64,000 bases of DNA from an uncultured Candidatus Saccharibacteria bacterium (GCA_964446625.1 CAYUPH010000005.1:1432-65431), one strand, 5' to 3'; shown: positions 8,072 to 59,372, counted from the stretch's first letter. Numbers and translations: made by a program. The notes: a model not told the origin generated them from the sequence alone.

Positions 8072-8080
8072 TGGTATAAT
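8072..8080 (+). promoter_or_regulatory. extended -10 box TGGTATAAT, 7 nt upstream of the ATG at 8088 (leaderless transcript predicted)
   Basis: Exact TGnTATAAT consensus. No room for a Shine-Dalgarno sequence. Confidence 0.45.
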
Positions 8081-25997: not shown

Positions 25998-26068
25998 TTC
26001 AGAATTATAACATTTTACAGGGCTTAAGTCAGAAGTGCTAACTGTGAAAAAAGGCGTATAATGAAAGG

Positions 26069-32690: not shown

Positions 32691-34706
32691 TTAAATTCCA
32701 AGTACAACCGGAATTACGATCGGTCTCTTTGCTGTCTTTTGAAACAGAAAACGAGAAAGGTTATCTGTGACTGCTGATTTTACAAACTCAAAGTTAATTG
32801 GGTGCATTCCAGCTGTGTTATCCTCAATTGTCTTTTTTATAATGATTCGTGCTTGCCTGAGAAGTTCTTGGTTTTCTCTAAGGTATACGAAACCTCGAGA
32901 AATAATGTCAGGAGATTTTTTTAGTTTTCCTGTATCAGAGTTTACTGTAGCGATAATAACAAACATACCATCTTGTGAGAGCATTTGTCTGTCACGAATA
33001 ACAACTTCCTGCATGTCTCCAATAGCAAACCCATCTACCATAACTGGCCCTCCGGGTGCTTTTTCTTTTCGTTCAGTAATCTTTTCACCATCGGCAGAGA
33101 TTTCGATAAGTGAACCATTGTCTGGAATTACAATATTTTCTTTTGGAGTACCGAGGTTTTCTGCAAGTTCGCCGTGGAGTCTAAGCATGTAATGGTTTCC
33201 GTGAATTGGCACAAAGAATTTTGGCCGGAGCTTTCGGTGGAGCCATTCGATTTCTCCTCTGTTTCCATGTCCTGTTGAATGGATAAAAACTTCAGAAGTT
33301 CTGTAGTGTACTATTCGAACCCCGTGACGCGCAAGGTTGTCCTTTAGTTTTTGTACCGCTCGCTCGTTTCCAGGAATGATTGAAGCAGAGAGTACAACAG
33401 TATCGTTTTTGGTGATCTGAATGTACTTATAATTCTTGTTGGCCATTCGAGAAAGAGCAGAGAATTCTTCTCCTTGTCCTCCTGTTGCAAGCACAACAAT
33501 TCGGTCCGGTGGGTAGTTAGGAATTTCAGAAGCGGGAATGATGGTATCTTTTTTGACTTCCATAAGTCGTGCTTCCTTACAAATATCGATGTTGTTTTTC
33601 ATGCTTCGGCCTTCAACAACTATTTTTTTGTTGTAGCTTTCTGCGGCTTGAATCACTTTTACAACTCGAGAAATATGTGAGGCAAACATCGCAAGAATAA
33701 GACGTCCTTTTGTAGTTCGAATAATCTCAGCAAGGTTTTCGTGCACTAAAGCTTCCGGAGTTGAAAAACCTGGGTTCTCAATGTTTGTTGAGTCAGTCAT
33801 AAGAAGAAGAGTTTTCTCTTTTCCAAGGTCTCCGTACACCTTTTCTTCGTATGCTTCGGGTACTCCGTCTTTGTGATCCAGCTTGTAGTCTCCTGGGTTT
33901 ACAATATTTCCATGTGGTGTGCGGATTGCAATTCCCATACAGTCAGGAATAGAGTGAGTTACTCCAAAAAACTTTACTTTCATTTTTCCAAGGGTAACTT
34001 CCTCGTCCTTCTCTACAATTTTGTAGTCAATTGGTGGAACATGAGGAAACTCAGATTGTCTTTTTTTAATCATAAGACCAGTAAGGTTTCGAGTATAAAG
34101 TGGCGGGTTTCCAATTCGTGGCATGATATAAGGAATACCTCCAATGTGATCAAGGTGCCCGTGAGTTATACAGATAGCTCTGATTTTGTCTTTTCTATCC
34201 TCAAGATATTTTGTATTAGGAAGAATATAGTCAATTCCTGGCGTATCTTCGTCCTGAAAAGCAAAACCTGCATCGATAACAAGAATATCGTTATCGATTT
34301 CGATCGCTGTCATGTTTTTTCCGATTTCTTCAACGCCTCCTAGTGGAATGATTCGGATTATTCCAGGAGCAGGAGGAGCAATTACGGGCTCTCTCTTTTC
34401 TTTTCGTCTTTCTTCTCCTTCTCCTCCATGATCGGCGTGATTGTGAGAGTGTGAATGCATATGCGAGTGAGAATGAGAGTGGGGTTTTGCATGTGAAGGT
34501 CCACCTCTGCGCGGAGCAGAGTGTTTCTTTTCTTTTGCCTCATCAAAAACCTCTTTAGGTGAAAAAGGTTCTCTTCGAATGCGTGGCGCGTCCTTTGCAG
34601 GAGTTGCTGAACCGGCATCCTTCACTTCTTTGTGAATAGCCCGTGTATCCGCTTCTTTTATTGGGTTTCTCCGATTTCGGAAAATTGTTTTCTTTCTGTG
34701 TTCCAT
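32691..34706 (-). CDS. rnj: ribonuclease J (beta-CASP metallo-beta-lactamase RNase) with His-rich N-terminal extension
   Basis: ITHGHLDHIGGIPYI (HxHxDH), beta-CASP region. N-terminal HSAPRRGGPSHAKPHSHSHSHMHSHSHNHADHGG. Confidence 0.85.
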   Translation of the reverse strand: MEHRKKTIFRNRRNPIKEADTRAIHKEVKDAGSATPAKDAPRIRREPFSPKEVFDEAKEKKHSAPRRGGPSHAKPHSHSHSHMHSHSHNHADHGGEGEERRKEKREPVIAPPAPGIIRIIPLGGVEEIGKNMTAIEIDNDILVIDAGFAFQDEDTPGIDYILPNTKYLEDRKDKIRAICITHGHLDHIGGIPYIMPRIGNPPLYTRNLTGLMIKKRQSEFPHVPPIDYKIVEKDEEVTLGKMKVKFFGVTHSIPDCMGIAIRTPHGNIVNPGDYKLDHKDGVPEAYEEKVYGDLGKEKTLLLMTDSTNIENPGFSTPEALVHENLAEIIRTTKGRLILAMFASHISRVVKVIQAAESYNKKIVVEGRSMKNNIDICKEARLMEVKKDTIIPASEIPNYPPDRIVVLATGGQGEEFSALSRMANKNYKYIQITKNDTVVLSASIIPGNERAVQKLKDNLARHGVRIVHYRTSEVFIHSTGHGNRGEIEWLHRKLRPKFFVPIHGNHYMLRLHGELAENLGTPKENIVIPDNGSLIEISADGEKITERKEKAPGGPVMVDGFAIGDMQEVVIRDRQMLSQDGMFVIIATVNSDTGKLKKSPDIISRGFVYLRENQELLRQARIIIKKTIEDNTAGMHPINFEFVKSAVTDNLSRFLFQKTAKRPIVIPVVLGI

Positions 34707-34725: not shown

Positions 34726-36450
34726 TTAGTCTTTGATAAAAAATTTCCATACTTTTTCTGTTTCTATATACCACTTGTTTACTTCAAGAAATCTCTCAGA
34801 GGAAGATGTGATACCGTCTAGGTTTACTCCTTTTACATCATCAGGAAGGATATAGACACTTCTCGGAGAGAAAAGGAAAACTGCTGGAGTATCCTTTATG
34901 ATTTCTGTCTCAAATGATTTATAAAGCTCGATTTTTTTTGCAGTAGAAGTTTCTTGTCTTGCTTTGGTAAGAATGTCGTCTACTTTACTGTTGGTGTACA
35001 TGGCGATATTGAGTCCAGGATCATTCCTCTCTGATGAATGCCAAAAAGCATACAAATCCAAATCTCGTCCAATTACTTCTCCAAAGAGAAGTGCTTCGTA
35101 TCGACGAGGTCTGATTACATTCTGATTAAGGTCTGAAAGGTCAAAAATTTTGAGGGACACATCAGCTCCGAGTTTTTGCCATGAGGCCTGGAGGAGTTCA
35201 GCAGTTTTTTTGAGATCGGGCGCATTTGTCGTTGAAATAGAAAACTGAAGAGTTTTCTTTCCTGTTTTTTCTGTCTTTTCGTAAATTCCTTTTTCATTTT
35301 TCTTGAACCCAGCATTTTCTAAAATCTCTGTGGCTTTCTCCAAATTAAAATCTCTAGGTGGAATTGAAGAAATTACTGTTGGAAGGGGGCCGTACGCCGG
35401 AGCACCAAAGCCAAGAAGAGCGGTATCAATAATTTCTTGTCGGTTTACTGCAAGGTCGAGTGCTTTTCTGACATTAGCATCTGCGAGAACAGAAGAGGTG
35501 TTTTCGTTGAAAAAGACCCCATAAATTCGTGGAAGGGGAGAATTGATTTCTTCTGAGTCTTCAGCAACTTTCTTAACTTCGTTAAGGGCAGAAGAGCTAA
35601 TATTTCCAACAGCATTGATTTCTCCTTTTTTGAATGCCTCCACTAGTTTTCCTTCAGTTGGATAAACGTGAAGGAAAATCCTTTTAATAAAAGGTGCGCC
35701 TCCGGTATATTTATTGAAGCTTTCAAGTTCGTAGTATTCAGGAAGTCCCGCAGAGTTCGTTGAAACATTTGCGATTCTGTACGGACCAGATCCGATTGGC
35801 TCAAAATTTACTTTGCTATACACAAATGCATCGCTTCCTAGTTCTCCCCAAATATGTTTCGGCAAGATTCCAAGAGTAAGATTTTCAACAAAGGGTGCAT
35901 ACGGTTTCTTTAGATGGAATTCAATATTTTTTTCATCTATTACCTCAACTTCAACACCTTGCCATGCGGGTGCTTTGTTGCTTTTAAGAACCGGGTCGAT
36001 TGCTTTCCTGATTGTAAAATCAACATCTTCGGCTGTTACTTTCTCTCCATCATGAAAATATGCATCATCTCTAATTTTTACGGAGTAGGTAAGTCCGTCT
36101 TCAGACACAATATAGCTTTCTGCGATGTCGTTTACAAACTCACCGTCAGGTGTAGCTTTGAGGAGACCAGAGTACACGAGCCGGGTCAGATCCCTCCCTG
36201 AATCCGTAACAGATAAAAGAGGGTTAATAAAAAGTGGGTATCCAACCACACCTTCCTTGAGCTCTCCTCCAGGAGCAGGAACTTCAACAATAAACTCATC
36301 GTTTGCTTTGCTCAGTAGCCATAGGCTTGAAGCAGCAAAAAGCCCGACGAACGCATAAAACATAATCTTTTCTGCGAGAGAAAAAGATTCTATTGTGTGG
36401 AGTATTTTTGCGCGAAAAGAACGATTTTTTTCAGAGGAGAAAATTGACAT
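34726..36450 (-). CDS. ABC transporter substrate-binding protein, family 5 (peptide/nickel OppA/DppA-like)
   Basis: 574 aa. N-terminal anchor. Overall SBP_bac_5 pattern (…YRIANVSTNS…, …FNENTSSVLADANVRKALDLAVNRQEII…). Confidence 0.65.
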   Translation of the reverse strand: MSIFSSEKNRSFRAKILHTIESFSLAEKIMFYAFVGLFAASSLWLLSKANDEFIVEVPAPGGELKEGVVGYPLFINPLLSVTDSGRDLTRLVYSGLLKATPDGEFVNDIAESYIVSEDGLTYSVKIRDDAYFHDGEKVTAEDVDFTIRKAIDPVLKSNKAPAWQGVEVEVIDEKNIEFHLKKPYAPFVENLTLGILPKHIWGELGSDAFVYSKVNFEPIGSGPYRIANVSTNSAGLPEYYELESFNKYTGGAPFIKRIFLHVYPTEGKLVEAFKKGEINAVGNISSSALNEVKKVAEDSEEINSPLPRIYGVFFNENTSSVLADANVRKALDLAVNRQEIIDTALLGFGAPAYGPLPTVISSIPPRDFNLEKATEILENAGFKKNEKGIYEKTEKTGKKTLQFSISTTNAPDLKKTAELLQASWQKLGADVSLKIFDLSDLNQNVIRPRRYEALLFGEVIGRDLDLYAFWHSSERNDPGLNIAMYTNSKVDDILTKARQETSTAKKIELYKSFETEIIKDTPAVFLFSPRSVYILPDDVKGVNLDGITSSSERFLEVNKWYIETEKVWKFFIKD

Positions 36451-36484
36451 TGATAGAACAAATTTACTTTTTAATTAAGTTTTT

Positions 36485-36700
36485 TTACTTAATGATAAGA
36501 GCGGCAACTGCGCTCGCTACAAAAAGGAGTGTTACAACAATTGTTGTGTAGAAGACGATTTTTTCAGGTCCTCGTCTTGTTCGAATTCCAGAGGTAATAT
36601 CTCCACCACCAAAAGCGCTTCCAGCACCAGCTTCTGAATATTGCATTAAAACGAGCCCAACCAGAATCACTGAAAGGATAATTTGAATATAAGGTAACAT
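36485..36700 (-). CDS. secG: preprotein translocase subunit SecG
   Basis: 71 aa, two TM helices with central Gly-rich loop SEAGAGSAFGGGD. Confidence 0.7.
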   Translation of the reverse strand: MLPYIQIILSVILVGLVLMQYSEAGAGSAFGGGDITSGIRTRRGPEKIVFYTTIVVTLLFVASAVAALIIK

Positions 36701-36842
36701 AGGTTTTAACTAAATGATTATATGTTAAGAGGCAACTTTCAACCGCTTTAGTAAGAGAGGAGAGAGTTACATTTATAAGGAGTCTAGCATAGATTCGGAA
36801 AAAGGCAATAGGCTGCATTTATCCACAAGTAAAAATAAAGTA

Positions 36843-36851
36843 TGGTATAAT
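36843..36851 (+). promoter_or_regulatory. extended -10 box TGGTATAAT upstream of lemA (31-nt leader without an obvious Shine-Dalgarno)
   Basis: taTGGTATAATtaag... Confidence 0.4.
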
Positions 36852-36882
36852 TAAGACTCATTAATAAAGTAAATTTTTTAAT

Positions 36883-37440
36883 ATGTCTACACTCACAATT
36901 CTCATTGCTGTCCTAGTCCTTGTGGTCCTTTTTGGGATTGTATACTTCAACAAGTTCGTTCGACTCTCGAATCAAGCAAAAGAGGCTTGGTCTGATATAG
37001 AAGTCCAACTTCGAAGACGTTACGATCTTATTCCTAACCTGGTTAGTGCAGTAAAGGGATATATGACTCACGAAGCAGGGACTTTTGAAAAGATTACAGA
37101 AGCGCGAAGTAGAGCAATGCAGGCAGAGAACCCTCATGAAAAAGGGGAAGCGGAAAATATGCTAAGTGGAGCCCTTAAGTCTCTTTTTGCTGTCGCAGAA
37201 AATTATCCAGATTTAAAAGCGAATACAAACTTTCTTGAACTTCAAAGAGAGCTATCAGACACAGAAAACAAAATTCAATCATCAAGGCGTTTCTACAATA
37301 CAACAGTAAGAGACCTAAATATTGCTGTTGAATCTTTCCCTGGAAATGTTCTTGCCAATATCTTTGGGTACAAAAAAATGGATCTCTTTGATTTGCCAGA
37401 CGGAGATGTTGCGCAGAATGTTCCTGAAGTAAAGTTCTAA
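36883..37440 (+). CDS. lemA: LemA family membrane protein
   Basis: N-terminal TM plus FNKFVRLSNQAKEAWSDIEVQLRRRYDLIPNLV, the LemA signature. Confidence 0.8.
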   Translation: MSTLTILIAVLVLVVLFGIVYFNKFVRLSNQAKEAWSDIEVQLRRRYDLIPNLVSAVKGYMTHEAGTFEKITEARSRAMQAENPHEKGEAENMLSGALKSLFAVAENYPDLKANTNFLELQRELSDTENKIQSSRRFYNTTVRDLNIAVESFPGNVLANIFGYKKMDLFDLPDGDVAQNVPEVKF

Positions 37441-37449
37441 AAGAAAAGT

Positions 37450-39240
37450 ATGGATGCAGTTTCTACTAGTGTATTAGAAACAGATTCTAAAGAAGAAATG
37501 GCTCCGAAGCTTCCGCTTCGGGGCTATTTTTTCTCGGTATCAAATATTGTATTTTGGAGTCTGTTTTTTCTTGGCTTTTTAGGAATCTCCCTTTATGAGG
37601 TACATCGATTTTTTGTTTTTGCTACCACAAAGAGAGTTTACGACGAGGTGTTTGAAATCGAAAAAGATACGCATGGCTGGAATAATCTACTTATCTTTTT
37701 TGAAAAAGGGCTTAGTGAATTTTCATGGTTACCACTCCTTCTTGTTTTTCTTTTCCTTTTGGTTGCTTTTAATGTTTTTTCTGTTCTATTTTTTATTTTA
37801 AACAGAAAAAGAATTGAAGTAAGAAGGAGTGTTGTTTTTGTTCTCATAAACACACTATCATTTTTTATCCTCTCGGGAACTATATCTTCCGCAACAATTA
37901 TTTTGAGTGTTAGTAGAGTAGTAAATTACGAAAAAAGCAATGAAGATAATTTCCTTTTACTTAGGGGTACAGCAATAACTGAAAAGGAAAGTATAAAAAA
38001 GGTACTCGAAGAATCACAGACGCCCATTCATGCATCGAAAGATATTTTTGATATTGAGGGAAGGGAAGATGAGCTTACTTTTGCAGAAAGTTTTGCTATT
38101 CCTTTCTTAAACAAAGAGAAGAGTAGTCAAAATTATTTTCCAAATAACGAGCCCTATGTGTATTTTCCTGGAAAGGGAATATTGGTTCATGACACAGAAA
38201 CTTTTTTAGAAGATTTAGGCTACGAAACAGCAGAGAAATATCTTGCTCAAACTTTTCCTGAATATAAAGCACCGAGAGTCCCATCTTTTGAAGTTGTGAG
38301 TGATGAAGTGTACGAAAAACGTTTTAAGGAAGAAGAAATAAAAAGAATAAAAAAAGTTATTTTTGATCTCCAGAAAGCTTATAGAGAGAATTTAGAAGCA
38401 ATTTCAGAAGCTAAAGAAATTATTGCAAATACACCAGCTAGAATAGCAGAAGAGGATGCTCAATATGCTGAGTATGTTACTAAAGCAGAAAAGGTGTACG
38501 GAGTGTGGTGTGGAAATGGAGAAGTGCGTGATTACTGTACAAAATGGAGTAAGAGTATATCCGAAAATAAAGCTATCGTCGCAGAGAACAGAAGAATTAT
38601 TGCTGAGGATAAAGCAGCCAGTGAGGAGTTAATTCGTCTAGGATCGAGTTACAACAGTCAAATAAAAGAAAATGAAGCTGCATTTAAAAAGGAGCTTTCA
38701 TCACTTGAGACAGGTGGAAGTGGTGATGGTGTGGTTGCTAGTCAAATCAAGAATGCCGTCGGAAACTTTTTTCCTCCCGGTACACTTCTTGTAAGAATCT
38801 TGCCTGAGGATGAAGCAATTTTTAGTGATTATCTCGAAGTTGTAAATCATGAAATTCTTCACTACTACGCATCTCGTTCAAGGCAAGAGGAGACAATGCC
38901 TACTTTTCTAGATGAAGGTCTCACAGAGGCTTTCTCTGATGAGTCACTCGGTTATCCTATTGGAAATTTTAGTCACAGTGCGTATGAAGCTGAGGTTCGT
39001 ATTGTTGCGCTTCTAGCTCAAAAAATGGATCCAGAAACTCTAAAGAATTTATACTTTTCAGGAAACATGACAACTTTTGAAAAAGAATTTAAAAAAGCTT
39101 TTCCCGGAGTCTCTTGGGATGCTTTTCTTCTCTTAGGAGAGAAAATCAATAGTGACACATGGCTTAAAGAAAACAATGATATAGAAAGTTATAGTGAGCT
39201 TGAGAGAATGGAAGAACTACTTCTTAAAGAAGATAGGTAG
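37450..39240 (+). CDS. hypothetical polytopic membrane protein (596 aa) with C-terminal HExxH zincin-like motif
   Basis: At least 4 TM helices in the first 170 aa. C-terminal EVVNHEILHYYAS...FLDEGLTEAFSDE (HEILH plus downstream Glu). Sits where a TPM/YgcG-type LemA partner usually lies. Confidence 0.55.
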   Translation: MDAVSTSVLETDSKEEMAPKLPLRGYFFSVSNIVFWSLFFLGFLGISLYEVHRFFVFATTKRVYDEVFEIEKDTHGWNNLLIFFEKGLSEFSWLPLLLVFLFLLVAFNVFSVLFFILNRKRIEVRRSVVFVLINTLSFFILSGTISSATIILSVSRVVNYEKSNEDNFLLLRGTAITEKESIKKVLEESQTPIHASKDIFDIEGREDELTFAESFAIPFLNKEKSSQNYFPNNEPYVYFPGKGILVHDTETFLEDLGYETAEKYLAQTFPEYKAPRVPSFEVVSDEVYEKRFKEEEIKRIKKVIFDLQKAYRENLEAISEAKEIIANTPARIAEEDAQYAEYVTKAEKVYGVWCGNGEVRDYCTKWSKSISENKAIVAENRRIIAEDKAASEELIRLGSSYNSQIKENEAAFKKELSSLETGGSGDGVVASQIKNAVGNFFPPGTLLVRILPEDEAIFSDYLEVVNHEILHYYASRSRQEETMPTFLDEGLTEAFSDESLGYPIGNFSHSAYEAEVRIVALLAQKMDPETLKNLYFSGNMTTFEKEFKKAFPGVSWDAFLLLGEKINSDTWLKENNDIESYSELERMEELLLKEDR

Positions 39241-39290
39241 CAGAAGAAGCCTCGTTTTGGTATAATTTGGTTCTAAAAAAGTCATATTAT

Positions 39291-40202
39291 ATGAAAAGCC
39301 TCTACACTCACCAAAGCGAAAACAACTTTAAAACACTTCTCCTTATGGGACTATTCCTTAGTTTTTTTGTTTTGCTCGGATACACTGCAAGCTATAAAAC
39401 TGGCGACCCAGCGCTCCTTTACGGTGCAATAATTTTTAGTGTCATTATGAATATTGGTAGTTACTGGTTTTCGGACAAAGTAGCACTTGCGATAAATGGG
39501 GCAAAAGAAGCAGATAGTAAAGAGTATCTTGAACTCCATCGAATAGTTGAGAATCTAGCTATAACAGCAGGTCTTCCAAAACCAAGGGTTTATATTATTA
39601 ATGATCCAGCTCCTAACGCGTTTGCAACGGGAAGAAATAAAGAGCACGCAGCTGTAGCGTTTACAACTGGAATTTTAAAAATCCTAGATCGCAGTGAACT
39701 TGAAGGAGTGGTTGCTCACGAACTATCGCATATTGGAAACAAAGATATTCTTCTTCAGAGTATTGTAGCAGTTTTGGTAGGGTCGGTTGCAATTCTCTCA
39801 GATTGGTTTATTCGCATTTCTTTTCATAAAGGAGACAATGATAACAAAAATCCTATTCTTCTCCTTCTAGGAACAGCACTCCTTATTCTTTCACCGTTTA
39901 TTGCAACACTTATCCAGCTCGCAATTTCAAGAAAAAGAGAATTTCTTGCAGATGCCACAGGTGCACTCCTTACACGATACCCCGAAGGCCTTGCGGGCGC
40001 ACTCCACAAAATTTCTGATTATAGCGCCCCAATGCAGAAAACAAATAAGGCAACGGCGCATATGTTTATTGCAACTCCGCTTGGGGGAGATGCGAATAAT
40101 GACGGTGTTCCAGATAAGACTCAAAAAGTGTCTTTCTTTACAAAAATCTTTATGACGCATCCTCCAATTGACGAGAGGATTAATGCGCTCCTCGGAAAAT
40201 AA
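39291..40202 (+). CDS. htpX: M48 zinc metalloprotease HtpX
   Basis: HELSHIGNKD (HExxH) and four TM helices. ATG at 39291 is downstream of a TGGTATAAT box (39258-39266), so the track's earlier start at 39267 is not used. Confidence 0.8.
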   Translation: MKSLYTHQSENNFKTLLLMGLFLSFFVLLGYTASYKTGDPALLYGAIIFSVIMNIGSYWFSDKVALAINGAKEADSKEYLELHRIVENLAITAGLPKPRVYIINDPAPNAFATGRNKEHAAVAFTTGILKILDRSELEGVVAHELSHIGNKDILLQSIVAVLVGSVAILSDWFIRISFHKGDNDNKNPILLLLGTALLILSPFIATLIQLAISRKREFLADATGALLTRYPEGLAGALHKISDYSAPMQKTNKATAHMFIATPLGGDANNDGVPDKTQKVSFFTKIFMTHPPIDERINALLGK

Positions 40203-40205
40203 TAT

Positions 40206-40796
40206 ATGTCACCGAAACATATTCCACTAGAAGACTTAAAAAAAGATATAAGTTTTAAAGCTACTCTTCTGGGTGAAAATTTATCTTTTAAAACAACCTG
40301 GGGACTTTTTTCTCCAGAGAAAATTGATGAAGGAACTTATGCGCTCCTTAGCGCGCTCGACATAGAAGGCTTTGAAGACATTTTAGATCTAGGATGTGGA
40401 TACGGTCCTATTGGTATTGCACTTGCTAAAAAAACCAAAGGTCAGGTCCATATGGTGGACAAAGACTTTGTTGCAGTAGAGTATGCAGAAAAGAATGCTG
40501 AAGAAAATAATGCAATGAATGCTCGTAGTTATCTTTCAAATGGTTTGTCTCATGTACCAAAAGATATGAAGTTTGATCTCATTGTCTCAAACCTGCCTGC
40601 AAAAGTTTCAAAAGAATTTTTTTGGATACTTTTTGGGGATATGAAAAACCATTTAAAATCAGGAGGAAAGATTGTTGTTGTCACGATTGCAGGACTAGAG
40701 TTCTTTGTAAAGAAAAATTTTGAGTCGATTTTTGGTAATTATAAGCTTATTAAAAGCACACATGGTTATTTTGTTGCTCTAGCAGAAAACAGATAA
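40206..40796 (+). CDS. class I SAM-dependent methyltransferase (small MTS-domain, RsmC/RlmG-like)
   Basis: Motif I ILDLGCGYGPIG, acidic VHMVDKD, LIVSNLP. Confidence 0.6.
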   Translation: MSPKHIPLEDLKKDISFKATLLGENLSFKTTWGLFSPEKIDEGTYALLSALDIEGFEDILDLGCGYGPIGIALAKKTKGQVHMVDKDFVAVEYAEKNAEENNAMNARSYLSNGLSHVPKDMKFDLIVSNLPAKVSKEFFWILFGDMKNHLKSGGKIVVVTIAGLEFFVKKNFESIFGNYKLIKSTHGYFVALAENR

Positions 40797-40800
40797 GCCC

Positions 40801-40809
40801 TGGTATAAT
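40801..40809 (+). promoter_or_regulatory. extended -10 box TGGTATAAT, 6 nt upstream of the ATG at 40816 (leaderless)
   Basis: cccTGGTATAATatttatATG. Confidence 0.45.
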
Positions 40810-40815
40810 ATTTAT

Positions 40816-41634
40816 ATGATAATTTCAAAAACACAAAAAATATGGGCGAGTGTTTTCTTTGGTGTTGTCTACCTTGGAATGTCCCTTACTCTTTTTATTC
40901 AAAGTGCGTGGAAACCAAGCGCCGAAAATCTCCTCATGTTTCATTTTATTTTCGTTCTTTTCATTGGTTACCTTGCAGGAATGTGGATTGCTTTCTATAC
41001 AATCCCACAAACAACACTGCAAAGTAAAGTAGGAAAATCACTTCTTTTTCTTGGGCTGGGAAATCTTACAATGGGAGCGGGGTTCATTGCATGGTTTATT
41101 ATGGAGATTTTTATGGGAATTGAAGATCTTTATCCTTCGATTGCAGATGTCTTTTATGTTCTTTTTGTACCCTTTGTTATTATTGGTCTCATTTATCTCC
41201 TTCGCATCTATTCTTTGGACATTACCCCGAGAAAAATTGTCCGTGCAGCGGTTACAACAATCGTGGCTTGTGCGCTTACTTATCTCTTTGCGCACGTTAC
41301 GATTCCTGCATTTCAAAGTGCTGAAAATTTCGGAAAATATGTTTTCGACTTTTTTTACGCAATCACTGATATGGTCTTTGTTGGTATGATCGTGTTTGTT
41401 ATTTCTCTTTCAGGTGGGCGAATTTACAAAGGGCTTTGGGTTTACCTTGCAGGACTAGTCCTCAGTATTATCGCAGATTTTCTTTTCTTTTACAGAGAAG
41501 ACTTGGGAGTGCATCATATTGCCGATGTAGCAGATGACTTTTATCTTCTGTCGGGTTGCGCTCTTACCCTTGGTATTTGGTATATTGCACAAAGTTTCTC
41601 TCAAAATATAACTGACAAGTCAGATGTTTCTTAA
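40816..41634 (+). CDS. polytopic membrane protein (about 7-8 TM), putative sensor module of the downstream histidine kinase
   Basis: 272 aa, entirely hydrophobic helices. Its 3' end overlaps the kinase ATG by 11 nt in a different frame. Confidence 0.55.
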   Translation: MIISKTQKIWASVFFGVVYLGMSLTLFIQSAWKPSAENLLMFHFIFVLFIGYLAGMWIAFYTIPQTTLQSKVGKSLLFLGLGNLTMGAGFIAWFIMEIFMGIEDLYPSIADVFYVLFVPFVIIGLIYLLRIYSLDITPRKIVRAAVTTIVACALTYLFAHVTIPAFQSAENFGKYVFDFFYAITDMVFVGMIVFVISLSGGRIYKGLWVYLAGLVLSIIADFLFFYREDLGVHHIADVADDFYLLSGCALTLGIWYIAQSFSQNITDKSDVS

Positions 41635-43183
41635 CCGTTTTTTTGATTTAGTTATAGGTAAAAAACAAAGTTTTGATGAAGAAGTTTTAAAACTTTTTAC
41701 CGCTCTTGCATCCCTTACTCAAGAGAAGGGGGTTCGTGAAGATTTCCTTTATAAGCAAAAAAGTGCAGGATATACAAAAGATCCGCTCGGTAGCGCAGTT
41801 CGGCTTTACCTAGACTGGGAAGGATACTTGCAAGACAAGCGAGACTCGGTTTTAAGTACAGAGGATAGTGAAAAAAAATCAATCAGAAGTGAAATAGAAA
41901 AACAGATTGATATCCAAAAGCTTCCTATCGAATTTCAAAGCATTTTTAGAGACAGAGATTTGCAAAAGTTCTACCTCGCAGAAGTTTTCCTAAAATCTGT
42001 TTTTATATATGTCTCTGAAAATCTTGGACTTGTGACAACTCGCTCGATACTAAACTCGATACTAGAGGGGACATCAACACCGATTACTGTTTCAGAAACC
42101 GGGTTCGACTTCTCGAAATTAAACGAAGAACTTCTTTCAAGCGGAACAAGCTATTCGCTTGAAAAACATTTTTCTACTTTTAAAGTTTTTCTTGAGGTTA
42201 TTTCAGAGGAGCTTGAAACCTCGCTTGGAAAAGATATTACAAAAGAGCTTTTTAGTCGTATCTACATTTCGATGCAGAAAATGTACGATGTGGAACTAGT
42301 TTCAAAAATCCTACCTTTTCTTCCAGACAGGCTCCTCAGTATGGATGAATGGCTTTCAATGCTTTCAAAAACTGAACTTGAAAACAGAGTAAGGGAAAAA
42401 ACCAAAGAACTGGAAGGTCTCAACAAAGAATTGGAACAAAGGGTAGCTGAACGAACCGAAGAACTAAAAAAAGCTTTCGAGGATTTGCAGGAACTAGACC
42501 GACGAAAATCTGAATTTATCTTTTTGGTGGGACACCAAATGCGAACTCCAATTGTTGCTGTAAAATGGGCGCTTAGAACCCTTCGAGATGGTGATGCCGG
42601 AGAGCTTCCGGCAAAAGCTCTTTCTATCATTACAGAAGCATACAGAGCTAATGAGTCAATGAATAGAACAGTGAATGAGATTCTTCTTGCAGACGACATA
42701 ATAAACAACAAAATTAAGTTTGAAATCGAAAAAACCGCCATAAATGATATAATCGAAAGAGTTATTGAGGAGAGTAAGGATGAAATTGCGGCTCGAGAGG
42801 TAATGGTGAACTTTACTGCAAAAGACAAGGTTTTCGTTCAAATCGACAAGGTGAAAGCTCCTGTTGTTTTTGCTGCTCTACTCGATAATGCGATTCGTTA
42901 TTCTTCTCCGCAGTCGATTATTACAATTTCTCTCAAGGAAGAAAAAGATATAGTCACAGTCTATATAGAAGACAAAGGTATTGGAATTCCAAAAGAAGTA
43001 TTTGAAAGAATTGGGGAAAGATTCTTTAGGGCAGATAATGCGCTCCGTCAAAATACTTACGGATCTGGGCTTGGAATTTATATCACAAAAAAAGTAATAG
43101 AAGGGGTATCGGGAACACTTCAGATTCAAAGCGAAGAAGGAAAAGGAACAAAAGTAATTATTACTCTAAAAAAAGCACAATGA
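41624..43183 (+). CDS. sensor histidine kinase (cytoplasmic; HisKA + HATPase_c), no TM segment
   Basis: Coiled-coil linker. H-box FIFLVGHQMRTPI, N-box LLDNAIRYS, G-boxes DKGIGIPKE and GSGLGIYITKKVIE. Confidence 0.85.
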   Translation: MFLNRFFDLVIGKKQSFDEEVLKLFTALASLTQEKGVREDFLYKQKSAGYTKDPLGSAVRLYLDWEGYLQDKRDSVLSTEDSEKKSIRSEIEKQIDIQKLPIEFQSIFRDRDLQKFYLAEVFLKSVFIYVSENLGLVTTRSILNSILEGTSTPITVSETGFDFSKLNEELLSSGTSYSLEKHFSTFKVFLEVISEELETSLGKDITKELFSRIYISMQKMYDVELVSKILPFLPDRLLSMDEWLSMLSKTELENRVREKTKELEGLNKELEQRVAERTEELKKAFEDLQELDRRKSEFIFLVGHQMRTPIVAVKWALRTLRDGDAGELPAKALSIITEAYRANESMNRTVNEILLADDIINNKIKFEIEKTAINDIIERVIEESKDEIAAREVMVNFTAKDKVFVQIDKVKAPVVFAALLDNAIRYSSPQSIITISLKEEKDIVTVYIEDKGIGIPKEVFERIGERFFRADNALRQNTYGSGLGIYITKKVIEGVSGTLQIQSEEGKGTKVIITLKKAQ

Positions 43184-43791
43184 AGACACTTATAGTAACA
43201 GCGCATCCATCAAGCCAAGGTTTTACACACGCGATTGCAGGAGTTATAAAAGAGGAAAGAGAAAAAAAAAGTGGGGAAGTAGAGATTCTCGACTTGTACA
43301 AGACAGAACATAAACAAGATTTTCTGCGGTTTGAAAATATAAAGGAACTTCCAAAAGATCCAGTGCGCGATGCAATTCAAGCAAAAATTTCTGGATCTGA
43401 TGAAATCATTTTTATTCACCCAGTATGGTGGATTTCAATGCCAGCGATTATGAAAAACTTTCTTGATCAAAACCTCACTTCACATTTTGCATATCAGTAT
43501 ATAAACGGAAAACGCCATGGACTTCTTCGAGGAAAGACGACAAGGGTATATGTAACTTGTGATATGCCACTCTGGCTTTATGCTCTTTTAGGATTTCCAT
43601 TTGTTCCGACATGGGTGGTTGGAGTGCTTATTTATTGTGGTCTTGAGGTAAAGAATTTTTCTATCTTTCGTATGATGAATCATCGAACTCCAGAGGGGCT
43701 AAAAGCTCACTTGGATAGAGTAAGGCGAGATATTGATAAAGAACCACTTTGGCTAAAATTTGTAAACTTTTGGGGAAGTAGAGTTCAATAG
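43180..43791 (+). CDS. flavodoxin-like fold NAD(P)H-dependent oxidoreductase (Flavodoxin_2 / NQO-azoreductase-like)
   Basis: MKTLIVTAHPSSQGFTHAIA...IIFIHPVWWISMPAIMKNFLDQ pattern. Confidence 0.6.
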   Translation: MKTLIVTAHPSSQGFTHAIAGVIKEEREKKSGEVEILDLYKTEHKQDFLRFENIKELPKDPVRDAIQAKISGSDEIIFIHPVWWISMPAIMKNFLDQNLTSHFAYQYINGKRHGLLRGKTTRVYVTCDMPLWLYALLGFPFVPTWVVGVLIYCGLEVKNFSIFRMMNHRTPEGLKAHLDRVRRDIDKEPLWLKFVNFWGSRVQ

Positions 43792-45372: not shown

Positions 45373-45431
45373 CCTCTAGGACGTAAAAAGTGTATAATTT
45401 AAGAGTGGAAGCAAAAAAGTTTTTGAGAAAC

Positions 45432-47687
45432 ATGGACAGACATTTTTTGATGCGGAGCGGCGCGGTTTTTTTTGCACTTTTGCCTCTTGTTTTTATACCA
45501 GGACACCTTGAACTTTTGTCTGATTTTAAATTATTTTTCCTTTCCCTTTCTGTTTCTGTATTAGTTATTTTATATTCATGTACGGCGTTTTTTCAAAAAA
45601 AGAAAGTGGAGATTCCTTTTTCGTTTGGTATCTTAAGTCTAAGCTTACTTTTACCCCTTTATCTCATTTCAACTTTTTATAGTTTAGAAAGACCTGTTTC
45701 TCTTTTTGGTTTTGGGGGCGACACACTGTCGATCTTTAGTTTTCTTATTTTTGGAGGAACTTTCTTTTCTGTTTTTCTTCTTTTTAAATCAAAAAGGGAT
45801 CACAACCTTCTTATTACTTTTTTAGTTGCTACTCTTTTTGGGTGTACACTTTTTCAAATAGCAAAAATATTTTTTCCCTCTCTTTTATCTCTGTATACTT
45901 TTTTTGGAGCGACAGTCGGAATTATGGGAAGCTTCGTTGATTTTGGTGTTATTTGTTTTCTTCTTTTTGGAATTTTTTATATTGTCCTATCAAGAGTTGA
46001 GCTTTCTGTAAGTTCGAGTATCTTTTTCTACGGAGCTTTAATACTTAGCTTTTTTGGTGGCCACATATCAGGAATTACACTTGATGCAATTCAATATAAG
46101 GTACCACTTAGTTTACTGTTACCTATCTTTCTTATTTTGGTAGATGTGTTTCATGTTGGACTAGATGCAGTAAAGAAAAGAGTTGGAAGTAGAATCTTTA
46201 ATCCAGTACCTCTTCTTGTTTTAGCATTTCTTTTTTCTGTAAGCTTATTGTTTGGAAAGGGTATTCAGAATTATTTTGAAAACGAATATTTGGTGCAAAG
46301 CGAAGCTTCTTTGCCTCCTACATCTCTTTCGGTGGGAATTTTAGTAAGATCAGTTTCTGCCCACCCGTTTGTTGGCTTTGGTCCAGGAACCTACGAAAAT
46401 GTAAAAAACGGTTTCGGAACAGTTATTGGAAACCTTTCGACAGACACAGGTGGAAGTAGTAGTGAAGTAAGTCGCCTTCTTTCGGAGACTAGTTCTGTTG
46501 GAGTTATTGCCGGAAGCATGTGGCTACTCTTTCTTCTCTCGGTATTTTTTGTTTCTCTTAAAATACTTATTCGAAATCCTGAAAAACATAGTGTTAAAAG
46601 AAAGGTGACTGCATTTGGTGCAGGTTTTTTGGTTATTTGTTTTATAACATTTCCAATTGGTGTTTTACCCCTTTCGCTACTCTTTATTTTTTCTGGACTT
46701 TTGTACGCGATTAGAGAAAGAGAAGGAAAACTGCGTTCGATTTGCCTTGGCGGGGGGTTGTCTTCTTACACTTATATAAAAACAATTGTTTTCTTTTCAC
46801 TTGTTATTTTGGTTTCCATGTATGTTTTTGGAAGTGCACTCCTTGGAAGTGTTATTGGGCAAAAAATAGAAAAAGGGGAGTATGTAAATGCTGAAGCACT
46901 GCTTTCTAAAACAAAAAGGTTTTCACTTGATAAAAATATATACATGCTTTCTGCGCAAAATTCACTCGGCCGTTTGTTTCAAAAAATCCAAAATAGTAGT
47001 GGAGAGGAAAGTGGTGAAGACCTTCTCTTTGTACTCAAAAATATTCTTGCTGATGTAGATGTGCTCGATGTGCTAGCTCCAAATAATTACGGTGTAAAAA
47101 TATTTGAGTCCGAGCTCTATGGTGAAATTGCTAGGCTTGGTTTAACTGATTTCTATTTAAAATCTCTACAAAAGACAAAGGATGCAGAGATGCTTTCACC
47201 TTCTGCACCGCTTTCAGCGCTCCTTCAGGCAAAAATTTATACGAATTTGGGAGAAGAGGAGAAAGCAAAAGAGGCGCTCGCAAGAGCGATTAGTCTGAAG
47301 CCAAATTACACTGAGGGTTATATTTTCCTTGCAAAAATATCAGCAGAGGGAACAGATGGCGAAACACAAAAACAACTTGTGGGTCAGGCAGAGAAAATCA
47401 ATCCACTAGATGTTGATCTGACTTTTCAAAAAGCAATCCTTAGTATCCAGGTAGGAAATTATAGTGTTGCACTAGCGAACCTCTCGGCGGTTATAAAAGT
47501 TCACCCTGGTTTAGTGGCTCCAAGGTACTATGAGGCTGTTGCTCTCTATATGCTGGGACAAAAAGAGGAGGGAATAAAGAAAATGAAAAGACTAAGAGGT
47601 CTTAGTGCGGATGGAGGAAGTGTGAATCAAGCACTCTCTCTTATGTTAGAGAATCGCTTGGAAGAAAAATTTCCTGTAGTAAAATAG
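45432..47687 (+). CDS. large polytopic membrane protein with C-terminal TPR repeats (O-antigen-ligase/Wzy-like architecture), upstream of murJ
   Basis: About 12 TM helices in the first about 480 aa, then TPR-like helical repeats (…AKEALARAISLKPNYTEGYIFLAKI…YYEAVALYMLGQKEEGIKK). The track's start at 45390 lies on a TGTATAAT box. ATG 45432 or a leaderless GTG 45406 are more likely starts. Confidence 0.55.
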   Translation: MDRHFLMRSGAVFFALLPLVFIPGHLELLSDFKLFFLSLSVSVLVILYSCTAFFQKKKVEIPFSFGILSLSLLLPLYLISTFYSLERPVSLFGFGGDTLSIFSFLIFGGTFFSVFLLFKSKRDHNLLITFLVATLFGCTLFQIAKIFFPSLLSLYTFFGATVGIMGSFVDFGVICFLLFGIFYIVLSRVELSVSSSIFFYGALILSFFGGHISGITLDAIQYKVPLSLLLPIFLILVDVFHVGLDAVKKRVGSRIFNPVPLLVLAFLFSVSLLFGKGIQNYFENEYLVQSEASLPPTSLSVGILVRSVSAHPFVGFGPGTYENVKNGFGTVIGNLSTDTGGSSSEVSRLLSETSSVGVIAGSMWLLFLLSVFFVSLKILIRNPEKHSVKRKVTAFGAGFLVICFITFPIGVLPLSLLFIFSGLLYAIREREGKLRSICLGGGLSSYTYIKTIVFFSLVILVSMYVFGSALLGSVIGQKIEKGEYVNAEALLSKTKRFSLDKNIYMLSAQNSLGRLFQKIQNSSGEESGEDLLFVLKNILADVDVLDVLAPNNYGVKIFESELYGEIARLGLTDFYLKSLQKTKDAEMLSPSAPLSALLQAKIYTNLGEEEKAKEALARAISLKPNYTEGYIFLAKISAEGTDGETQKQLVGQAEKINPLDVDLTFQKAILSIQVGNYSVALANLSAVIKVHPGLVAPRYYEAVALYMLGQKEEGIKKMKRLRGLSADGGSVNQALSLMLENRLEEKFPVVK

Positions 47688-47692
47688 TTTAA

Positions 47693-49369
47693 ATGGTCAA
47701 AAGACTTATTAAGTTCGTAGGGAGAGAGGTTTCAGACATTCACGATGCAGCATATGTGCTTGCGATTTTTACTTTTCTAGCTCAACTTGTTGCCCTTGCG
47801 AGGGACAGACTTCTTGCATCACACTTCGGAGCGGGGCAGACCCTAGATGTTTACTATGCCTCTTTTCGAATTCCAGACCTGATTTTTGTGTCCCTTGCAT
47901 CCTTTGTGTCTGTTTCTGTAATGATTCCTTTTATTCAAGAGAAGGTAGGAAAAGGAGAGAAAGAAAGCAAAGAGTTTATTGCAAATGTCTTTACCTGTTT
48001 CTTTGGTGCTATTTTAATTACAGCTGCAGTCGCATTTTTCCTTATGCCCTATATTATCTCAAAAGCGTACAGTGGTTTTACGCCGGAAGCGCAGGAACAG
48101 GTTGTTCTCTTGTCTCGAATACTTCTGCTCTCACCAATTCTTATGGGAGTGTCAAACCTCTTTGCGAGTATTACACAAGCGTTTCGCCGTTTTGCAGTCT
48201 ATGCTCTTTGTCCGGTTATTTATAACCTTGCAACAGTTTTCGGTATCCTCGTTCTTTATCCAAAATACGGACTACAAGGAATTATCTACGGAGTTTTAAT
48301 TGGTGCCTTTCTTCACATGGCGCTTCAGCTTCCTTTTGTTCAAAGCCTTGGACTTATGCCGACACTGCGTTTTGGAATCTCGTGGAAGGAAATAAAAAAG
48401 ATTATTTCTATTTCGATTTCTCGTACTCTCGCGCTCTCTATTCTAAACTTAGCTGTCTTTGCCCTTCTCTCACTTGCTTCTCACATGAACGAAGGATCAA
48501 TTACAATTTTTAATCTTGCATTCAATCTTGAGTCTGTACCGATGTCTCTTATCGGAATTAGTTATTCTATGGCAGCCTTTCCTCTTCTCTCACAACTTTT
48601 TATTGATGGAAAAAAAGAAAAGTTTATCGAGGAAATCGGTGCTGCTATGAGGCATGTCATCTTTCTCTCGGTACCAATTGTAATGCTTTTTATAGTTCTT
48701 CGCGCACAAATTGTTAGGGTAGCTCTTGGAGCAGGAAACTTTAGTTGGCATGATACAAGGCTTACTGCAGCGTGTCTTGCTATCTTTTCAATTGCAGCAA
48801 TTGCACAAAGTGTGTCACTTCTTTTTGTAAGAGCATATTACGCGGCAGGAAATTCAAGGAGACCTCTTCTTGTAAATATTTTCTCCACAGTTTTTATTGT
48901 TATCTTTCCGCTTTTCTTTTTAAAGCTTATGCAAAGCACGCCAGAGTTTACACTCTTTCTTGAAAGTATGCTTCGAATCGAGGGAGTAAGCGGAACTGAA
49001 GTACTCACTCTGCCACTTGGTTTTACGCTCGGCTCGATTTTAAATTCCGCAATATTTTTTGTCCTTTTCAAAAAAGACTTTGGAAGCATTTGGGAAAAGA
49101 TAAGACGAACCCTTTTTCAGAGTGTTTCTTCTGCCATTATTGGAGGAGCTGCGGTGTACGTCTTCCTCAACATCTTTGATGGAATCTTTAGTAAAACGAC
49201 AGTAAAAGGAATTTTTGCACAAGGTTTTCTTTCAGGAATAGGTGGACTTCTTGTTTCTGTTTTTATTTTAAAACTAATGCAAAGTAAGGAACTCACAGAA
49301 GTGATGGATATTCTACGCAGAAAAATCCAAAAGCCCGTTGTAGTGGTTCCAGAGCAAACCGATCTGTAG
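47693..49369 (+). CDS. murJ: lipid II flippase MurJ (MviN)
   Basis: 558 aa, 14-TM MOP-family pattern. N-terminal SHFGAGQTLDVYYASFRIPDLIF typical of MurJ. Confidence 0.8.
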   Translation: MVKRLIKFVGREVSDIHDAAYVLAIFTFLAQLVALARDRLLASHFGAGQTLDVYYASFRIPDLIFVSLASFVSVSVMIPFIQEKVGKGEKESKEFIANVFTCFFGAILITAAVAFFLMPYIISKAYSGFTPEAQEQVVLLSRILLLSPILMGVSNLFASITQAFRRFAVYALCPVIYNLATVFGILVLYPKYGLQGIIYGVLIGAFLHMALQLPFVQSLGLMPTLRFGISWKEIKKIISISISRTLALSILNLAVFALLSLASHMNEGSITIFNLAFNLESVPMSLIGISYSMAAFPLLSQLFIDGKKEKFIEEIGAAMRHVIFLSVPIVMLFIVLRAQIVRVALGAGNFSWHDTRLTAACLAIFSIAAIAQSVSLLFVRAYYAAGNSRRPLLVNIFSTVFIVIFPLFFLKLMQSTPEFTLFLESMLRIEGVSGTEVLTLPLGFTLGSILNSAIFFVLFKKDFGSIWEKIRRTLFQSVSSAIIGGAAVYVFLNIFDGIFSKTTVKGIFAQGFLSGIGGLLVSVFILKLMQSKELTEVMDILRRKIQKPVVVVPEQTDL

Positions 49370-59197: not shown

Positions 59198-59372
59198 GCG
59201 GTTAATATAGCAGAAAAGTAGAAAATGGGGTAGGAGCCTTGTTTTAGGATGATTTTTAGATAATCCACAGAAGCAAATTTTAGTGTATTAAAAAAGTATT
59301 AATTCTGTGTTAAAATCGAAAGAAAATGTTGCACAAATCTTTTATTCAAAATTTTTACCTTCTTTTTTACTA

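Follow-up and report, generated by a model that had tools for sequence, protein, structure and literature searches.

A candidate family of membrane-anchored, gluzincin-like metallopeptidases with a member encoded between lemA and htpX in a Candidatus Saccharibacteria genome

Gluzincins, the zinc peptidases of MEROPS clan MA(E), carry their third-ligand Glu on the helix that follows HExxH, roughly 18-25 or more residues past the second His. Among them, the M1 aminopeptidases are recognized by a GxMEN exopeptidase motif together with HExxH-x18-E, and the pattern HExxH...EEG(x)(A/T)E(Y/F), which we use as a lead only, is typical of M1, M9 and Peptidase_MA_2-type gluzincins. Both the LemA domain and the active site of the membrane protease HtpX are cytoplasmic, and SPFH/Band-7 proteins are a class known to partner membrane proteases. 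In S. pneumoniae, lemA and htpX are adjacent and co-regulated (PMC8546594), and LemA-DUF2207 pairs have been noted in the literature (PMC12631010). We analysed a 64,000-nucleotide (nt) stretch of DNA from an uncultured Candidatus Saccharibacteria bacterium (GCA_964446625.1, CAYUPH010000005.1:1432-65431), hereafter the window, in which a gene for a protein of 596 amino acids (aa) lies between lemA and htpX (37450-39240, + strand). Family searches and an AlphaFold2 (AF2) model point to an uncurated gluzincin-like metallopeptidase that is anchored in the membrane. An earlier reading of the DNA without database searches (the sequence-only reading) had proposed that LemA, this protein and HtpX form an undescribed proteolytic membrane-stress unit. 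What is new here is the uncurated gluzincin-like family with its distinctive architecture; a new proteolytic system is not established.

Homologues of the 596-aa protein were gathered by an exhaustive phmmer search as cluster representatives at 50% identity. The search returned 137 representatives at E<=1e-3, 36 of which reached E<=1e-10. Family members are mostly 500-650 aa long, many align over almost their entire length, and their overall identity to the query is about 15-30%. The sole match of a word-index homology search (full protein, full-length alignment), in which candidates were limited to the 8000 with the most shared words, was a 97% identical copy; the TM and coiled-coil parts probably dominated these candidates. 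HExxH is carried by 137 of 137 homologues. In the window protein it reads HEILH (38848-38862, +), where H467 and H471 are two predicted zinc ligands and E468 the predicted catalytic base, and it is retained in 138 of 138 aligned sequences. Downstream lies EGLTE (38914-38928, +) with E489, the predicted third zinc ligand. In the C-domain alignment, E489 is present in all 138 sequences, G490 in 126, T492 in 136, and E or D at position 493 in 137. Y512 (38983-38985, +), a candidate transition-state stabiliser, is Tyr in 137 of 138 sequences and invariant in alignment A1; its context is GYP in the family consensus and AYE in the window protein. G438, Y535 and Y/W556 are near-invariant in the C-domain alignment. 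The family signature can be written HExxH-x17-EGxTE, with the consensus HEYLHYxSY...LPxFFEEGLTEYF...GYP...IYF. The motifs pointed out in the sequence-only reading, HEILH and EGLTEAF (from aa 489), are both there, with a spacer of 17 residues between the second His and the Glu and not 18. Because all 137 homologues carry HExxH and the alignment columns are invariant, sequence comparison indicates that the motif is no chance match. The strict retention of the ligands, the base and the Tyr at only about 20-30% overall identity argues for active-site-type selection. The description of a zincin-like protein absent from curated libraries is borne out. HExxH and the Glu are kept in every homologue, and none of the 137 lacks the motif.

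AF2 was run on the full length with a 67-sequence alignment, and the C-domain was also modelled alone. The mean predicted local distance difference test score (pLDDT) was 85 and the predicted template modelling score (pTM) 0.77 for the full-length model, and 92 and 0.88, respectively, for the C-domain. Helices 30-60, 93-117 and 124-174 correspond to three transmembrane (TM) segments, the last of which runs on as a stalk. A low-confidence linker follows the stalk, and from residue 231 the pLDDT is about 88-97. The N-terminal piece of the predicted catalytic domain (aa 230-284, 38137-38301, +) consists of a beta-hairpin (236-246), a helix (249-268) and a strand (279-283); the strands of the model are 236-239, 243-246, 279-283, 438-441 and 445-449. 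Inserted in the domain is a long antiparallel helical hairpin (aa 285-420, 38302-38709, +) made of helices 285-326, 328-354 and 361-420, with a pLDDT >90. The turn between helices 328-354 and 361-420 forms its tip and holds a CX8C pair (C354...C363, 38509-38538, +), a putative disulfide; the two positions are Cys in 59 and 60 of the 67 aligned members, i.e. in all non-gap rows. HEILH is placed in helix 458-477 (pLDDT >90), E489 in the next helix (485-499), and a C-terminal helical bundle comes after it. The predicted HExxH helix agrees with clan MA(E), as does a third-ligand Glu on the following helix, 17 residues after H471, judged by sequence and predicted secondary structure only. HExxH was found in a confidently predicted helix, and not in the disordered segment without a third ligand that the sequence-only reading had named as evidence against a zincin. 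Alignment and model together describe a real family with a strictly conserved HExxH...E...Y signature on what are predicted to be consecutive helices.

Foldseek with the full-length model returned coiled-coil proteins only, driven by the helical hairpin; 4cgk and 8jia were among these matches at E of about 0.6-0.7, which is not significant. These two are structures of the group formed by PcsB, EnvC and RipC, which work with FtsEX and likewise have a long antiparallel helical hairpin on an extracytoplasmic hydrolase domain. The resemblance is limited to the coiled coil, as the enzymatic domains there are CHAP and degenerate LytM-type domains and here a zincin domain, and no FtsEX genes lie near the window protease.

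The membrane anchor (37537-37899, +), as defined by hydropathy and AF2, comprises TM1 (aa 30-52), TM2 (aa 93-117), the basic loop NRKRIEVRR (aa 118-126) and TM3 (aa 124-150). The N-terminal 4-TM bundle proposed before was not recovered; hydropathy and AF2 give three TM helices together with an amphipathic loop that is predicted poorly. Three hydrophobic segments are also the modal count of the family (37 of 67 members). At the positions of R119 and K120, an R or K is found in 57 and 53 of the 67, respectively. Because the TM2-TM3 loop is basic, the positive-inside rule suggests an N-in, C-out topology, in which the catalytic domain would be outside the membrane. The conserved CX8C is probably an extracytoplasmic disulfide, and the divergent pairing of one relative (P0004) with a DsbA-like thioredoxin gene counts in favour of this topology. 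The protein would then begin with a short tail on the cytoplasmic side, followed by three TM helices, the second and third of which are joined by the conserved basic loop. From TM3, a stalk would lead to an extracytoplasmic catalytic domain, split by the hairpin of about 135 residues with its probable disulfide tip. H467, H471 and E489 would bind Zn2+, E468 would serve as the general base, and Y512 may stabilise the transition state. In this cell, the enzyme would most likely work on the outer face, where it would trim or degrade proteins that are exported or sit in the membrane and so complement HtpX, which faces the cytoplasm.

The relation to known peptidases was assessed by comparing the protein and its family with profile and structure libraries. 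For the 596-aa protein, nothing was matched in Pfam or NCBIfam at E<=0.1, nor among PDB sequences. When 67 full-length members and 46 C-domains were scanned against Pfam, none reached threshold. The sub-threshold matches, of which the best were BSP (E=9.5e-5), DUF6647 (6e-4) and M1 (2.7e-3), were nearly all zincins: M9, M1, M61, DUF6647, DUF2268, SprT-like, MPTase-PolyVal, BSP, M85 and Peptidase_MA_2. Profile searches, suggested beforehand as a check, hence gave nothing above threshold and almost only zincins below it. The family consensus matched BSP in Pfam at E=0.033 (not significant), and NCBIfam gave no peptidase or family-wide match for the family. PDB profile searches found nothing at E<0.1; the top match of the C-domain was aminopeptidase N at E=0.32, which is not significant, aligned on HExxH...EGLT. 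A comparison of the family profile with E. coli PepN by hhalign gave the same register (HEYLH/HEYFH, EEGLTEYF/KEGLTVF), at a P of 0.009 and a probability of 4.5%, again not significant. Side by side, HEYFHN...SLKEGLTVF of PepN stands against HEYLHY...FFEEGLTEYF of the family consensus. The family does not classify as M1, as evidenced by its spacer of 17 residues and by an upstream conserved element that reads ExxxGxF and not GAMEN. No significant PDB or viral match was found by Foldseek with the contiguous C-domain model.

The family therefore resembles the gluzincins M1, M9, Peptidase_MA_2, DUF2268 and BSP in its HExxH helix, in a Glu about 17-18 residues on and in the EGLTE(Y/F) context. It differs from them in falling below all thresholds, in having no GAMEN and no Foldseek match, and in a catalytic domain that is split by the hairpin with the CX8C tip and preceded by three N-terminal TM helices. 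Two points weigh against an outward-facing gluzincin: none of the known peptidase families or structures was matched with statistical significance, the scan of the members and the PepN alignment included, and the predicted topology follows from sequence rules only. Weighing these against the conservation of the motif, we consider it reasonably probable that the protein is a genuine gluzincin-type zinc metallopeptidase, seemingly catalytically competent, membrane-anchored and facing outward. Its zinc binding and peptidase activity are what we infer from the conserved residues.

Four co-directional genes make up the locus, all on the + strand and arranged head to tail in the open reading frame (ORF) listing, as the sequence-only reading had reported. 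The first is lemA (36883-37440), encoding a 185-aa protein with a hydrophobic N-terminus and an N-terminal TM helix, whose PF04011 match (E=1.8e-60, 203.5 bits with the cut-off at 26.2) spans all 149 profile positions. After the protease gene comes htpX (39291-40202), whose 303-aa product is an M48 zinc metalloprotease by its PF01435 match (1.1e-32, 113.8 bits against a cut-off of 20.3) and its HELSH motif (39717-39731). The fourth gene (40206-40796) encodes a small class-I methyltransferase of 196 aa with an MTS domain, RsmC/PrmC-like (PF05175, 9e-35). The presence of an M48 HtpX behind the partner gene and of a small methyltransferase behind htpX was thus rightly predicted. The predicted gaps of 9-26 nt were right for lemA and the protease gene (9 nt). 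The protease/htpX gap is 26 nt only if htpX starts at TTG 39267 (the longest ORF) and is otherwise 50 nt, from the ATG at 39291, where gene callers place the start (303 aa) if not later; the htpX/methyltransferase gap is 3 nt. NCBIfam HtpX models match at E=1e-85, yet with 287 bits against 355 the equivalog cut-off is missed, and HtpX is accordingly a divergent member. Both HtpX and the 596-aa protein are of the integral-membrane HExxH zinc protease type, lie in one gene run and may act on membrane or exported proteins. They differ in TM layout and predicted membrane face, and have no detectable homology past HExxH. A second copy of the protease elsewhere in the window was excluded, as the only two HExxH ORFs of >=150 aa within the 64 kb are the protease and HtpX. 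For the methyltransferase, no link to proteases was found, and in the sister genome described below it is not downstream of HtpX. A defence-system reading was also rejected: PADLOC gave no match for LemA, the protease, HtpX or the 272-aa protein encoded farther downstream, and only a generic fold match for the methyltransferase.

A promoter-like site (TCCACA-18 nt-TATAAT, 36822-36851, +), with a TG extension at 36843-36851, lies 32 nt upstream of lemA. It is a consensus match only, and with 10 of 12 matches and the TG present it scored best in a promoter scan of 36400-43300. The protease/htpX gap holds an exact match to the extended -10 box TGGTATAAT (39258-39266, +), 25 nt before the htpX ATG, as a possible internal htpX promoter; no -35 element was matched to this box in the promoter scan, and another copy of TGGTATAAT occurs at 40801. 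The scan found no terminator-like site between the genes, including the protease/htpX gap. Given the 9-nt gap and a promoter-like site only upstream of lemA, the protease gene is probably co-transcribed with lemA. By the same signals, transcription probably continues into htpX, which may in addition have a transcript of its own, and the tightest transcription unit would be lemA with the protease gene. Boxes of the type TGNTATAAT are enriched in the window (7 against 2.06 expected, consensus matches only). Such extended -10 boxes are found at 8072-8080, 26004-26012 (- strand), 36843-36851, 39258-39266 and 40801-40809. For three TGNTATAAT boxes the distance from the box end to an ATG (8088; 25997, minus strand; 40816) is only about 7-8 nt, a spacing suggestive of leaderless mRNAs.

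We compared this arrangement with 80 metagenomic loci (L044-L123) whose LemA is 55-73% identical to that of the window. htpX directly follows lemA in 39 of the 80. One ORF separates the two genes in about 14 loci and two or three ORFs do so in about 5, while most other contigs end too early. The intervening slot holds DUF2207 in L106 and L110; in L073, where the contig stops short of any htpX, DUF2207 comes directly after lemA. The context of the window, with a leftward SecG ahead of LemA, recurs in L073 and L106, and L110 has a different upstream context. At 7 loci the slot is taken by a Gmad2-like protein with a single TM segment (163-193 aa), and a DUF6159 protein and a PKD/dockerin protein were also seen there. 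None of the slot proteins of these loci belongs to the protease family. The slot occupants are nearly all membrane or extracytoplasmic proteins, which may reflect a general theme of LemA partners.

The window has the usual order and orientation of the lemA-htpX pair known from Firmicutes and seen here in the Candidate Phyla Radiation (CPR). It departs from that pair in that a 1.8-kb protease gene stands between the two and htpX seemingly has its own extended -10 box. The observation of an unusual protein at the LemA partner position was correct, in that relatives have DUF2207 or nothing there. The protein shares with the partners in LemA-DUF2207 and LemA-TPM pairs the position straight after lemA, a similar size and membrane anchoring. 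It is unrelated to them in sequence, has a zincin active site, and has no PF09972, PF20990 or TPM match in Pfam. The lemA-htpX pair is a conserved and already known unit with a variable slot, of which the protease is one lineage-specific occupant. The notion of an undescribed membrane-stress unit is therefore not supported, as lemA-htpX is known (PMC8546594), recurs in the 39 relatives, and the protease family is generally not linked to it.

The only closest relative that shares the window context is P0002, a protein of 631 aa that is 32% identical to the 596-aa protein. At its locus (L124) the gene order is CAP-MFS-RNase J-SBP_bac_5-SecG, with SecG leftward, and then LemA-SPFH/Band_7-protease-HtpX, with gaps of 12, 2 and 3 nt in the run from LemA to HtpX. 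An SPFH/Band-7 gene thus stands between lemA and the protease orthologue in the sister lineage (L124 8385-12223, L005 65-4782). In L005, a DUF1189/Yip1-like membrane protein gene follows htpX, at the position of the methyltransferase in the window. The L124 order recalls SPFH-protease systems such as HflK/C-FtsH and stomatin-NfeD, as only 2 nt lie between the SPFH/Band-7 gene and the protease orthologue that follows it. It departs from them in that the window cluster has no SPFH gene and the protease is neither AAA+ nor ClpP/NfeD-like. Literature on LemA with SPFH, or on LemA with Patescibacteria, was searched and nothing relevant was found. LemA is 73%, HtpX 65-70% and RNase J 78% identical between L124 and the window, as compared with 32% for the protease. 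Sequence comparison thus indicates that the protease evolves much faster than its neighbours; exposed proteins often evolve fast. Apart from the window species (L001-L004), the lemA-protease-htpX arrangement was found only in the sister lineage, in one or more genomes (L005, L124) carrying P0002 or a close relative. Conservation of this synteny in relatives, suggested beforehand as a check, does not reach beyond these syntenic genomes: it is absent in the 37 other GTDB loci scored and around the relatives P0003, P0004 and P0005.

The wider family was surveyed by scanning GTDB species representatives with the C-domain alignment; 39 loci were found and 38 were scored for neighbours. The scan pattern, F[FLI][EDN]EG[LI]T[ED]Y, samples a large subfamily and excludes the window motif FLDEGLTEA, and the closest relatives were looked up directly. 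Going by record titles, most loci come from metagenome-assembled genomes of Patescibacteria, the CPR (Morani-, Levyi-, Davies-, Woese-, Pacei-, Portnoy- and Amesbacteria, Saccharimonadales). About 10 are labelled uncultured Gammaproteobacteria/Pseudomonadales, which we suspect to be mislabelled bins. Genes that recur beside those of the family encode Wzy_C+TPR membrane proteins (14 loci), an IS1595-type zinc-ribbon protein, large Pfam-less proteins and SNase/Excalibur nucleases. P0003 comes after pilM-pilN and two small ORFs (L125 3427-7599 / L126), P0004 adjoins the DsbA-like gene, and P0005 lies between GATase and Nramp. The type IV pilus assembly context of P0003 is a hint that some members may act at the cell surface or in connection with pili. 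In the window, a 765-aa TPR-region protein (45390-47687) is encoded beside MurJ (47693-49369). It weakly resembles the Wzy_C+TPR neighbours of 14 of the 38 GTDB family loci, by BLASTP at E=1e-3 on a GxGPGTY stretch and by its TPR region.

Functional cooperation with LemA and HtpX, with the protease as an outer-face quality-control arm, is speculative. In its fullest form, LemA, together with SPFH in the sister lineage, would organise an outward gluzincin with a disulfide-capped coiled-coil arm and an inward HtpX into a two-faced membrane-protein quality-control cassette of CPR bacteria, which we regard as improbable. The tight operon spacing and the SPFH gene of the sister lineage favour it. 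Against it stands the family-wide lack of linkage, as 37 of the 38 scored GTDB loci have no LemA or HtpX inside about 6 kb and the next-closest relatives P0003, P0004 and P0005 have neither as a neighbour. The slot also takes plainly unrelated genes, e.g. one for a 23S rRNA IVP protein, and the catalytic domain is predicted on the face opposite that of HtpX. In addition, the L124 genome is syntenic with the window across the whole region. Because of this and the 65-78% identity of the neighbours, the shared arrangement may be plain inheritance, and common descent accounts for the synteny no less well than selection. The same observations bring forward a different explanation, to which we give a little less than an even chance: the protease may be a passenger, an independent cell-surface enzyme (for pilins, surface proteins or envelope components) that came to sit in the insertion-tolerant lemA-htpX gap in a single ancestor and is functionally unconnected with either gene. 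The neighbours of the family elsewhere (Wzy_C+TPR and large surface proteins, nucleases, pilM-pilN, a DsbA-like gene, Nramp), the many unrelated genes in the slot, the low identity of the protease between the two lineages and a catalytic domain predicted outside the cell are all consistent with a passenger. The spacing is harder to reconcile with one, at 9 nt after lemA in the window and 2-12 nt in the L124 run, as are the choice of an SPFH/Band-7 gene as the extra gene of the sister lineage and the membrane or extracytoplasmic nature of most other slot occupants. Across the family as a whole, we infer that the enzyme works independently of LemA and HtpX.

The protein could alternatively be a non-orthologous replacement of DUF2207, filling the role of LemA partner with the protease domain as an add-on. 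LemA-DUF2207-HtpX in L106 and LemA-DUF2207 in L073, both behind the leftward SecG of the window context, and LemA-DUF2207-HtpX in L110 fit such an exchange, as do the pairs in the literature (PMC12631010) and the comparable dimensions of the slot DUF2207 proteins, which are membrane-anchored and 558-649 aa long. We nevertheless hold it to be unlikely: there is no sequence similarity, the family hidden Markov model has no match on the slot DUF2207 proteins at E<=10, and three N-terminal TM helices contrast with the signal-anchor and late TM helices of DUF2207, a protein whose own function is unknown. A catalytically dead zincin-like scaffold, or an HExxH used for metal or structural binding only, would account for the failure to match any active peptidase family significantly or any structure. 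This is very improbable given that the base Glu, both His, the third-ligand Glu and the Tyr are strictly kept at such low overall identity. A gluzincin-type peptidase accordingly remains our reading of the protein itself.

Other features of the window were recorded as well. A 272-aa multi-TM protein without a Pfam match (40816-41634) and a 519-aa HisKA/HATPase_c histidine kinase (41624-43183) are encoded with an overlap of 11 nt. The kinase apparently has no TM segment of its own, and the pair may be a split membrane sensor kinase. The RNase J homologue (32691-34706, - strand) is extended at its N-terminus by about 120 aa, which include a low-complexity stretch rich in His (HSHSHSHMHSHSHNH). 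Two giant surface proteins are predicted, one of 1829 aa (10743-16232) with DUF2341, Fn3, an SdiA-regulated beta-propeller and PG_binding_1, and one of 1492 aa (59307-63785) with a DUF5122 beta-propeller, Big_7 and PG_binding_1.

The family is sizeable, with at least 137 clusters at 50% identity and no entry in Pfam, NCBIfam or PDB. Its three-TM anchor, hairpin-split catalytic domain and conserved Cys pair offer clear experimental targets. The lemA-htpX pair is conserved in CPR, and the membrane or extracytoplasmic nature of most proteins in its slot offers a usable lead on the function of LemA. If the two-faced cassette were true, damaged membrane and exported proteins would be attacked from both sides of the membrane, and LemA, which is widespread and of unknown function, would gain a testable role as a protease-associated organiser. 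The Patescibacteria, a group whose surface biochemistry is mostly uncharacterised, include many organisms believed to live attached to other cells. Judged by their sequences, the members of this family look like active zinc proteases displayed on the Patescibacteria cell surface.

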